This document shows, one piece after another, positions 2,302 to 7,096 of a DNA stretch of 7,841 nt. Position 1 is the first letter of the stretch; each line of letters starts with the position of its first letter. Below the pieces are notes generated by a model. That model made no database searches. It saw only the letters and a program-made list of their open reading frames with translations, and was not told where the DNA came from. A program made the position numbers and the translations under genes. Source of the DNA: a virus. Lineage: Duplodnaviria > Heunggongvirae > Uroviricota > Caudoviricetes. The DNA lies in IMG/VR virus record IMGVR_UViG_2534681763_000020; one strand, written 5' to 3'.

Positions 2302-2472
2302 TTACTGTTTGTTTTTTTATATTTTACTGTTCACCTCTGTTCACCTTAAGAAAAAAGATAAGTAATACAGTAAGTTAAAGGGTGAACAATCGCAGTAATG
2401 ACTGTTCACCGTCTGTTCACCACTGTTCACCCGTTGATGGACTTTTTGTGCTGTTTATTACTGTTTGTTTTT
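2302..2472. repeat. ori: ori-like replication origin: six type I iterons (TGTTCACC) bounded by a 15-bp perfect direct repeat and AT-rich DNA
   Basis: TGTTCACC at 2328-2335, 2338-2345, 2403-2410, 2414-2421 and 2424-2431; inverted GGTGAACA at 2381-2388. Spacing is 10-11 bp. TTACTGTTTGTTTTT occurs at 2302-2316 and 2458-2472. The same octamer recurs in the crr repeats downstream of the primase gene. Confidence 0.75.
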
Positions 2473-2584
2473 ATTAATTCGCCGGGAATGAATAAGAAAA
2501 AACGATTTGTATTTCACTATAAAAATTACGAATTGCTTTAAGTGGCTTTAAATGACTTTAAGTGGAGATGAACAAAAAATACAC

Positions 2585-2660
2585 AAGCATTGTAAGGCTG
2601 CCGGAACAAATCCCCCCTGTTGCGTCTGCTGAAAATATTCACAAAATAAAGCGCTACCCG
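2585..2660 (+). promoter_or_regulatory. PLL: Late promoter PLL with Ogr/Delta-type activator site (TGT-N12-ACA) upstream of vis
   Basis: TGTAAGGCTGCCGGAACA at 2591-2608. AATATT -10-like element near 2644-2649. Predicted start around 2655, about 55 nt before the vis ATG. Mirror arrangement to Psid across the iteron cluster. Confidence 0.55.
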
Positions 2661-2710: not shown

Positions 2711-2977
2711 ATGCAAGCTGTTTTTTCTTCCCCGTCTCCCGCCCCTGTGACGCCACTGATGCCGCTGCCGGACATCACGCAGGAGCGTTTTTTACGTCTG
2801 CCGGAAGTGATGCACCTGTGCGGCCTGTCACGCTCGACCATCTATGAACTCATCCGTAAGGGGGAATTTCCGCCGCAGGTGAGTCTTGGCGGTAAAAATG
2901 TGGCCTGGCTGCACTCTGAAGTCACCGCATGGATGGCCGGGCGCATTGCCGGACGCAAACGGGGGTACGACGCATGA
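2711..2977 (+). CDS. vis: Vis, AlpA/Xis-family HTH DNA-binding regulator and excision factor, 88 aa
   Basis: 88-aa ORF with AlpA-like helix-turn-helix core ([48 protein letters not shown]). First gene after the PLL-like promoter. Stop TGA (2975-2977) overlaps the first eta ATG. Confidence 0.85.
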
Positions 2978-4762: not shown

Positions 4763-7096
4763 ATGAAAATGAACGTAACCGCCACCGTCAGCCATGCGCT
4801 CGGCCACTGGCCGCGTATTCTCCCGGCGCTGGGGATTCAGGTGCTTAAGAACCGTCATCAGCCCTGTCCGGTCTGTGGCGGGAGTGACCGCTTCCGTTTT
4901 GATGACAGGGAGGGGCGCGGCACCTGGTACTGCAATCAGTGTGGTGCCGGTGACGGCCTGAAACTGGTTGAAAAGGTGTTTGGTGTTTCCCCGTCCGACG
5001 CGGCCGCAAAGGTGGCTGCCGTGACCGGCAGCCTGCCCCCGGCTGACCCGGCAGTGACGGCCGCCGCCGGCGCTGAAACAGACGCTGCCCGGAAGAACGC
5101 CGCCGCACTGGCACAAACCCTGATGGCAAAAACCCGTCCCGGAACCGGTAACGCCTACCTGACCCGCAAGGGCTTTCCCGGCCGGGAATGCCGGATGCTG
5201 ACCGGCACACACAGAGCCGGTGGCGTGAGCTGGCGCGCCGGTGACCTTGTGGTGCCACTGTATGACGACAGCGGCGAACTGGTTAACCTTCAGTTAATCA
5301 GTGCTGACGGCCGTAAGCGCACCCTGAAAGGTGGACAGGTCAGGGGCACCTGTCACACCCTTGAAGGACAGAATCAGGCCGGAAAACGTCTGTGGATAGC
5401 GGAGGGATACGCGACCGCACTTACCGTGCATCACCTGACCGGTGAAACGGTGATGGTGGCGCTTTCTTCCGTGAACCTCCTTTCTCTGGCCAGCTTTGCC
5501 CGGCAGAAGCACCCCGCCTGTCAGATTGTCCTTGCCGCTGACCGTGACCTCAGTGGTGACGGCCAGAAAAAAGCCGCCGCAGCCGCAGATGCGTGTGAAG
5601 GTGTTGTTGCCCTGCCGCCGGTCTTCGGTGACTGGAATGATGCCTTCACGCAGTACGGCGGGGAAGCCACCCGTAAGGCCATTTATGATGCCATCCGGCC
5701 ACCGGCTGAAAGCCCGTTCGACACCATGAGCGAAGCGGAGTTTTCCGCCATGAGTACCAGCGAAAAGGCCATGCGTATCTATGAGCATTACGGCGAGGCG
5801 CTCGCGGTCGATGCCAACGGCCAGCTTCTGTCCCGCTATGAAAATGGTGTCTGGAAGGTGCTGCCGCCACAGGACTTTGCCCGGGATGTGGCCGGGCTGT
5901 TTCAGCGTCTGCGCGCGCCGTTCTCCTCCGGGAAGGTGGCCTCCGTGGTGGACACCCTGAAGCTGATTATTCCGCAGCAGGAAGCCCCCTCCCGCCGCCT
6001 GATTGGCTTTCGTAACGGCGTGCTCGACACGCAGAGCGGCACGTTCCACCCGCACAGTCCGTCACACTGGATGCGTACCCTGTGCGATGTGGATTTCACC
6101 CCGCCGGTGGAAGGGGAAACGCTGGAAACCCACGCCCCCGCGTTCTGGCGCTGGCTTGACCGTGCCGCCGGTGGTCGTGCGGAAAAACGCGACGTGATTC
6201 TGGCCGCACTGTTTATGGTGCTGGCAAACCGCTACGACTGGCAGCTCTTTCTGGAGGTGACCGGTCCCGGCGGCAGCGGCAAAAGTATCATGGCCGAAAT
6301 AGCCACCCTGCTGGCCGGGGAGGATAACGCCACGTCGGCCACCATCGAGACGCTGGAATCCCCGCGTGAACGTGCCGCGTTAACTGGCTTCTCACTGATA
6401 CGCCTGCCGGACCAGGAAAAATGGAGCGGCGACGGAGCCGGACTCAAGGCCATCACCGGCGGCGATGCGGTGTCCGTTGACCCGAAATACCGGGATGCAT
6501 ACTCCACGCACATCCCGGCGGTGATTCTGGCCGTGAACAATAACCCGATGCGCTTCACCGACCGCAGCGGCGGCGTGTCACGCCGGCGGGTGATTATTCA
6601 CTTCCCGGAACAGATAGCCCCGCAGGAGCGCGACCCGCAGCTTAAGGACAAAATCACCCGCGAGCTGGCGGTCATCGTGCGTCACCTGATGCAGAAATTC
6701 AGCGACCCGATGCTCGCCCGGTCACTGCTTCAGTCCCAGCAGAACTCAGACGAGGCGCTGAACATCAAACGGGATGCCGACCCGACGTTTGATTTTATCG
6801 GCTATCTGGAAACCCTGCCGCAGACCAGCGGCATGTATATGGGGAACGCCAGTATCATCCCGCGTAATTACCGTAAATACCTCTATCACGCCTATCTGGC
6901 CTACATGGAGGCAAACGGCTACCGGAATGTACTCAGTCTGAAAATGTTCGGACTGGGGCTGCCGGTGATGCTGAAGGAATACGGGCTGAATTACGAGAAG
7001 CGCCATACCAAACAGGGGATACAGACCAACCTGACGCTGAAAGAGGAAAGCTACGGCGACTGGCTGCCAAAATGTGACGACCCAGCAACAGCCTGA
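4763..7096 (+). CDS. alpha: Alpha: multifunctional replication protein (primase, SF3-type helicase, C-terminal origin-binding domain), 777 aa
   Basis: 777 aa, the length of P4 alpha. N-terminal zinc motif CPVCGG...CNQCG. Primase motif EGYATA and acidic ADRD. Walker A GPGGSGKS at 6263-6286 (residue ~501). AGGAG ribosome-binding site. Its recalled binding octamer TGTTCACC is clustered on both sides (ori and crr). Confidence 0.95.
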   Translation: MKMNVTATVSHALGHWPRILPALGIQVLKNRHQPCPVCGGSDRFRFDDREGRGTWYCNQCGAGDGLKLVEKVFGVSPSDAAAKVAAVTGSLPPADPAVTAAAGAETDAARKNAAALAQTLMAKTRPGTGNAYLTRKGFPGRECRMLTGTHRAGGVSWRAGDLVVPLYDDSGELVNLQLISADGRKRTLKGGQVRGTCHTLEGQNQAGKRLWIAEGYATALTVHHLTGETVMVALSSVNLLSLASFARQKHPACQIVLAADRDLSGDGQKKAAAAADACEGVVALPPVFGDWNDAFTQYGGEATRKAIYDAIRPPAESPFDTMSEAEFSAMSTSEKAMRIYEHYGEALAVDANGQLLSRYENGVWKVLPPQDFARDVAGLFQRLRAPFSSGKVASVVDTLKLIIPQQEAPSRRLIGFRNGVLDTQSGTFHPHSPSHWMRTLCDVDFTPPVEGETLETHAPAFWRWLDRAAGGRAEKRDVILAALFMVLANRYDWQLFLEVTGPGGSGKSIMAEIATLLAGEDNATSATIETLESPRERAALTGFSLIRLPDQEKWSGDGAGLKAITGGDAVSVDPKYRDAYSTHIPAVILAVNNNPMRFTDRSGGVSRRRVIIHFPEQIAPQERDPQLKDKITRELAVIVRHLMQKFSDPMLARSLLQSQQNSDEALNIKRDADPTFDFIGYLETLPQTSGMYMGNASIIPRNYRKYLYHAYLAYMEANGYRNVLSLKMFGLGLPVMLKEYGLNYEKRHTKQGIQTNLTLKEESYGDWLPKCDDPATA

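Follow-up and report, generated by a model that had tools for sequence, protein, structure and literature searches.

The window, that is, the whole stretch of 7,841 nucleotides analyzed here, is a P4-type satellite prophage. Over positions 2250-2980 it is 97.9% identical to satellite phage P4 (X51522/NC_001609), and positions 2440-2980 share 100% identity with a prophage of E. coli strain D1. The genes psu, delta, and sid lie on the minus strand and are followed by the ori region and vis; the alpha primase is encoded at 4763-7096, and the crr repeats also belong to the layout of the window. The features of the region between sid and vis are listed in Table 1.

Table 1. Features between sid and vis, in window coordinates
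Feature	Position	Strand	Basis or remark
Second TGT-N12-ACA dyad, upstream of sid (Psid)	2231-2248	sid on minus strand	Motif search and sid annotation
Six ori type 1 iterons, TGTTCACC	2328-2335, 2338-2345, 2381-2388 (minus), 2403-2410, 2414-2421, 2424-2431		X51522 annotation mapped
Putatively exchangeable 45-bp cassette	2523-2567		Alleles A (window), B, and C; flanks CACTATAA and ATGnAnAAAAAA near-identical
Three tandem 10-bp repeats	2536-2565	(-)	Annotated P4 'ori type 2 repeats'; very probably core of the P2 Cox recognition array
Cox box TTAAAGCAA	2533-2541	(-)	1 mismatch to TTAAA(G/C)NC(A/C)
Cox box TTAAAGCCA	2543-2551	(-)	0 mismatches to TTAAA(G/C)NC(A/C)
Cox box TTAAAGTCA	2553-2561	(-)	0 mismatches to TTAAA(G/C)NC(A/C)
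TGT-N12-ACA dyad upstream of PLL	2591-2608	+	At -120 from the vis ATG; conserved in close relatives
Conserved PLL core (cctgttgc...gaaaatattcacaaaata)	2616-2655	+	Conservation across satellites of many genera
vis (ORF88), AlpA family, first gene of the PLL transcript	2711-2977	+	Pfam Phage_AlpA, E = 7e-21

The array at the center of this work consists of three 10-bp units, CTTTAAGTGG, CTTTAAATGA, and again CTTTAAGTGG, which are contiguous and arranged head to tail. Tandem Repeats Finder describes it as a repeat of period 10 with 3.1 copies at 2535-2565, and when the 7,841-bp window was searched for CTTTAARTGR with at most one mismatch, only three sites were found, all of them in the array. The lag-10 self-match at 2535 is 17/20, the highest in the whole window. 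In 300 dinucleotide-preserving shuffles, the window-wide lag-10 maximum had a mean of 12.4 (standard deviation, 0.8); a value of 16 was reached in 0.3% of the shuffles and 17 in none. The array in the window is thus real and nonrandom, and an earlier note on this DNA, which had described three perfectly contiguous 10-bp repeats ending about 25 bp before a TGT-N12-ACA dyad, was right about both the repeats and the distance, the gap to the dyad being 25 bp. All three units are identical in reference P4, where the flanking bases differ. They map base for base onto three features annotated as 'ori type 2 repeat' (X51522 9176-9205; positions 587-616 of our locus L001 in the mapping of the P4 annotation, with identical sequence), so the repeat itself has been in the public P4 annotation for decades. 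The repeats are an already known element, the ori type 2 repeats of P4, which very probably are the P2 cox boxes upstream of PLL.

Downstream of the array lies the PLL region. The dyad at 2591-2608 is the Ogr/Delta activator site. PLL probably starts near 2655, 55 bp from the center of this dyad, and relative to that inferred start the array occupies approximately -119 to -90. No sigma-70-like promoter was found in 2230-2760, which is consistent with PLL being activator dependent. Only the close relatives of P4 have an exact TGT-N12-ACA at position -120 relative to vis; two of our loci (L010 and L011) and most loci from species other than E. coli differ here. In distant satellites the PLL core is kept (cttgttgcc...gaaaatattcacaaaatag) and the upstream element is different (e.g., TGTTGTGTGGTG...TACAAAATG).

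P2 Cox recognizes a box with the consensus TTAAA(G/C)NC(A/C). Cox boxes are directional direct repeats whose starts lie 10 to 11 bp apart, each turn being occupied by one Cox protomer, and binding is cooperative and leaves the DNA bent or wrapped (PMC3936717, PMC5009727). For Cox binding, six or more boxes and a footprint of 70 nt or longer have been described, and the P2 Cox binding site in P4 is located upstream of PLL, with its boxes pointing away from that promoter's -10 and -35 regions (PMC3936717). PMC3936717 cites Saha et al. (1989) for Cox binding and for Cox-dependent activation of PLL, and the GenBank record of P2 states that Cox activates a P4 promoter (spelled 'P11' there). PLL is activated by P2 Cox and not by WPhi Cox, which reads other repeats (PMC5009727).

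The array agrees with these descriptions in several respects. Its reverse complement is cacTTAAAGtCAtTTAAAGcCAcTTAAAGcAAttc, and on this strand three cox boxes are read (Table 1), whose starts are exactly 10 bp apart and thus within the published spacing. These boxes form the sole cluster of consensus matches (at most one mismatch) in the 420 bp upstream of vis. It speaks against a Cox operator that only three boxes come this close to the consensus, where at least six are described, and that, by our own reading of the sequence, the in-phase positions flanking them match the consensus poorly. They are located on the strand opposite vis and face away from PLL, as published for P4. When the P4 array (CACTTAAAGTCATTTAAAGCCACTTAAAGCAATTC) is aligned without gaps to the Pc operator of P2 (CACTAAAAGGCATTATAAGACATTAAACGCAATTC), 27 of 35 positions are identical. 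The score of 19 compares with 8.1 ± 1.3 for the null (p <= 0.001), and this p-value holds with dinucleotide shuffles as well as with a null that keeps the 10-bp periodicity. In the P2 switch region that we fetched, the aligned stretch overlaps the annotated -10 and -35 signals of Pc. Because the units fit the cox-box consensus, its spacing and its orientation, share this identity with Pc, and lie where a Cox site upstream of PLL has been published, we consider it very probable, on the basis of sequence, that P2 Cox, the excisionase and repressor of the helper, recognizes the P4-type satellite through an operator array of which these repeats are the core. The proposal in the earlier note of a cooperative array on one DNA face, with one unit per helical turn, gains support as well, as it matches the binding described for P2 Cox (PMC3936717, PMC5009727).

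A separate match was obtained with the C-cox intergenic region of phage P88 (KP063541; around 250-300 of locus L226), which aligns without gaps to window positions 2505-2553 (33/49 identical; score, 17; p of about 0.002). This match takes in CGAATTGC beside the first cox box, and P2 has GCAATTC where its Pc operator ends.

The repeats could also be an element of the replication origin, serving as secondary iterons for the alpha primase-helicase or as a DNA-unwinding element. The annotated rep_origin fragment takes in the array, which lies some 105 bp away from the alpha-bound type 1 iterons, adjoins an AT-rich stretch, and itself has a G+C content of about 33% (our own count). However, satellites that are 92 to 94% identical overall keep all six type 1 iterons as well as the AT-rich stretch, whereas the type 2 repeats are replaced, and the replacement sequence is richer in G+C (about 54% in the version that we call type C, again by our own count). 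The repeat unit is also unrelated to the type 1 iteron and is absent from crr, and the minimal ori1 (123 bp) of Tocchetti et al. (1999) is said to leave out the repeat site. As the repeats are neither conserved together with the other origin elements nor found in crr, we disfavor a role as an origin element, which we regard as very unlikely. The repeats apparently owe the name 'ori type 2 repeat' to where they lie in the mapped ori fragment and not to a demonstrated role in replication. In the same region, the sole terminator-like match (2381-2410, minus strand) consists of inverted type 1 iterons (GGTGAACA...TGTTCACC) and is probably an artefact of iteron orientation, not a terminator.

The replacement of the repeats is confined to a short segment. 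An alignment of the window with four E. coli satellites (L005 to L008) shows hardly any differences in the type 1 iterons, AT-rich stretch, dyad, PLL core, and leader, but the 45 bp at 2523-2567 (approximately 683-727 in each of the four) occur in three unrelated versions. Allele A, that of the window, holds the three units (CTTTAAGTGG x3), allele B is TTCCAGCTCCTTCCAGAGCGTTTTAAAGCTATCTGGCGCT, and allele C is TTCCAGGTCCTTCAGAACCCTTTGAGACCCTTCCAGTCCGG; all of them are 10-bp periodic. The polymorphism is also seen in the IMG/VR loci L063 to L136. Among the 75 IMG/VR satellites listed with a Vis at least 98% identical, approximately 31 carry A, 26 carry B, and 18 carry C, and in 30 of the 31 type A satellites sampled from IMG/VR the three units are invariant. 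The earlier note had raised the question of whether the triple repeat is conserved at the promoter: the repeat sequence itself is not, as it is replaced in relatives, but a helically phased array is present. At the epsilon position, two of the aligned satellites, L006 with cassette C and L007 with cassette B, encode one and the same protein (WP_001244670.1), so the antirepressor allele does not obviously covary with the cassette. Three further IMG/VR loci (L139 to L141), with a Vis that is 76% identical, have a homologous segment (AATTTTATGAGTGTCTCAGCGCGTCGTGTGCCG...) without an obvious phased array; these may represent a lineage without an excisionase-sensor cassette or one with a different register.

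These alleles also bear on Vis, which the earlier note had put forward as the protein that binds the repeats. The array would then be an autoregulatory operator whose three repeats are occupied by Vis protomers, with repression of PLL as the result. Pfam places Vis among the winged-helix excisionases of the AlpA type, and binding to direct repeats one turn apart is typical of these (PMC7498355). It is the excisionase of P4 and has been reported to bind P4 attP (PMC2603039), and Polo et al. (1996), a reference of the same paper, name Vis in their title as a regulator of the late promoters. However, the same Vis (88/88) is present in the window and in L005 to L008, which together hold three unrelated 45-bp versions, and in IMG/VR the reference Vis sequence occurs with each of the three. 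Three unrelated arrays next to one identical Vis mean that Vis cannot be their sequence-specific reader. In addition, a search of P4 attP and Psid for a counterpart of the motif or the array gave nothing above chance, and the units fit the consensus of Cox. We therefore rejected Vis as the reader of the array, and an autoregulatory Vis operator appears extremely unlikely.

We then consider the same position in a wider set of satellites, for which 42 vis-linked loci from genomes of other species and 11 from E. coli were gathered; the analyses cover 42 satellite loci drawn from both. Self-similarity at 10 or 11 bp (at least 13/20) is present in the cassette segment of 35 of the 42 loci versus 1 of 42 for the adjacent PLL core, and at lags of 7 to 8 and 13 to 14, with a threshold of 14, no segment of the 42 loci is self-similar. 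The repeat unit at the cassette position differs between lineages. The segments were also compared with the switch regions (C-cox or cI-apl) of 15 P2-like helpers. A best helper-operator score of at least 16 was reached by 16 of the 42 cassettes; for either of two control segments taken from these loci, the count was 0 of 42. This result also bears on the possibility that the repeats are a site for a host factor or an intrinsic bend (e.g., IVF-independent curvature, IHF, Fis, or H-NS), with no phage-specific reader. Phased TTTAAA tracts at 10 bp should indeed curve DNA, and the region is AT rich, but a host-factor site should be kept among the satellites of one host, and instead three alleles segregate within E. 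coli; moreover, the alleles of other genera resemble Cox or Apl operators of helpers specifically at the cassette segment. We consider such a site highly improbable.

The helper matches fall on different phages. Cassettes of E. coli, Phytobacter, and Citrobacter satellites (L010, L018, and L039) match the region of phage 186 annotated as '7 binding sites for Apl' at 28 of 33 positions (score, 23; null maximum, 15 to 19). Apl-type arrays, with GTTTGCCA or TGGCAAAC units, are found between about -170 and -135 relative to the vis ATG in these three loci and in L011, L019, L043, and L047, and in the opposite orientation in L027 and L053; the hosts are E. coli (TOE3), Citrobacter, Phytobacter, Edwardsiella, Enterobacter, and Kosakonia. 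Phages of Klebsiella and Erwinia encode an Apl that does not differ from the 186 protein, and close relatives occur in Yersinia and Salmonella, a host range that fits the hosts of these satellites. Allele A matches the P2 Pc operator, as described above, allele B (27/37; score, 17) matches the switch of the WPhi/SI7 family at -75 to -38 from the cox start, and allele C (25/35; score, 15) matches the same switch; these last two matches are weaker than those of A and of the Apl-type arrays. For type C, the ungapped comparison with the WPhi reference switch itself was not significant (score, 9; p of about 0.39), and IMG/VR prophages of the WPhi/SI7 Cox family gave a better match than this reference. 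The cassette of L028 does not match WPhi significantly either (p of about 0.19), though the boxes look alike. A Scandinavium satellite (L022) matches the switch of a P2 Cox variant of 80% identity (19/24; score, 14). Several cassettes are phased and have no convincing match among the 15 switches, with best scores of 10 to 13, namely, those of L026, L033, L045, and L048 (five ATGGCCAAT-type units), L035 and L055 (ATGTGCGAGG), and L044 and L051 (ATTGCAC type). In the P2-like phage fiAA91-ss (NC_022750; O157:H7; L059), the cox region is interrupted by an IS21-family element; the match covers only Cox residues 27 to 81, and the annotation shows no cox gene at this place. Matching by IMG taxon identifier brought a cassette and a helper Cox together in no more than three genomes, a number without statistical power. 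One pairs A with P2 Cox, another A with WPhi Cox, and the third B with an SI7-family Cox; the second counts against the P2 Cox reading of allele A, though only as an anecdote.

From these comparisons, we see about an even chance that 2523-2567 is an exchangeable helper-sensor cassette, held by P4-like satellites at a fixed place upstream of the conserved PLL core, whose phased array copies or mimics the Cox or Apl operator of a particular lineage of P2-like helpers. The putative pairings are P2 Cox boxes with allele A, arrays of the WPhi/SI7 family with alleles B and C, and 186 Apl operators with numerous satellites from Klebsiella, Enterobacter, Citrobacter, and Kosakonia. Cassettes may be swapped by recombination between the conserved flanks, and it would depend on the identity of the cassette which helper, incoming or induced, can wake the satellite. 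That WPhi Cox does not activate P4, which carries allele A (PMC5009727), agrees with such a specificity of the cassette.

For allele A, the following course of events can be proposed. Cox is described as nucleating on its boxes, polymerizing in the direction of the boxes, and bending the DNA; on the P4 array, its protomers would bind head to tail and cooperatively to the three boxes, one per turn. This binding would switch on the otherwise activator-dependent PLL, and the transcript would supply the excisionase Vis and the downstream replication operon, so that an incoming P2 leads to derepression of the P4 prophage. How Cox bound at -90 to -119 would reach RNA polymerase is most likely a matter of DNA bending or wrapping. 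Alternatively, it is possible that Cox displaces a silencing protein and in that way stimulates RNA polymerase.

The annotation of the window can now be regarded as settled: the repeats are very probably the long-known target of P2 Cox that couples derepression and excision of P4 to infection by the helper. The comparative by-product, the cassette polymorphism, matters more than the repeat itself. If it is what it appears to be, the helper specificity of satellite induction would reside in a short, swappable cis element and would be predictable from sequence, and the element would offer a simple handle for engineering P4-based delivery systems that answer chosen helpers. We found no description of an exchange of helper-sensor cassettes in the literature searched, which leaves out the older P4 literature, and the comparative papers on P4-like satellites that we examined never mention Cox. 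The cassette polymorphism across P4-like satellites may be new.

The closest known system is formed by the cox boxes of P2 itself at Pe-Pc and attP, which have the same 9-bp box, TTAAA(G/C)NC(A/C), in direct repeats at 10 to 11 bp. In P2, however, these boxes overlap Pc and repress it or direct excision at attP, whereas the P4 boxes lie approximately 90 to 120 bp upstream of a foreign promoter, face away from it, and activate it (PMC3936717), and only three of them are strong. The Apl operators of phage 186, seven between pR and pL and five at attP, are likewise helically phased direct repeats that are read cooperatively by the first product of the lytic operon of a helper. They differ in their unit, which is TGGCAAAC-like and is not present in the window, and Apl has no match to Pfam Phage_Cox. 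The X1-X1.5-X2 sites of lambda Xis and the arrays of other recombination directionality factors are also tandem repeats of one turn, bound head to tail and cooperatively in a bent microfilament (PMC7498355). Those arrays act on recombination in att, whereas the P4 array would act on the transcription of another element. The type 1 iterons of P4 share with the type 2 repeats the annotation as ori repeats and the intergenic region, but their sequence is unrelated, and they are conserved across satellites and repeated in crr, neither of which is true of the type 2 repeats. In the SaPI/PICI satellites, helper proteins inactivate the Stl repressor. As in P4, a specific early protein of the helper is detected so that the satellite can leave dormancy; in SaPI this is antirepression by protein-protein interaction, whereas in P4 a DNA-binding protein of the helper would be recruited directly to a site that copies or mimics its own operator.
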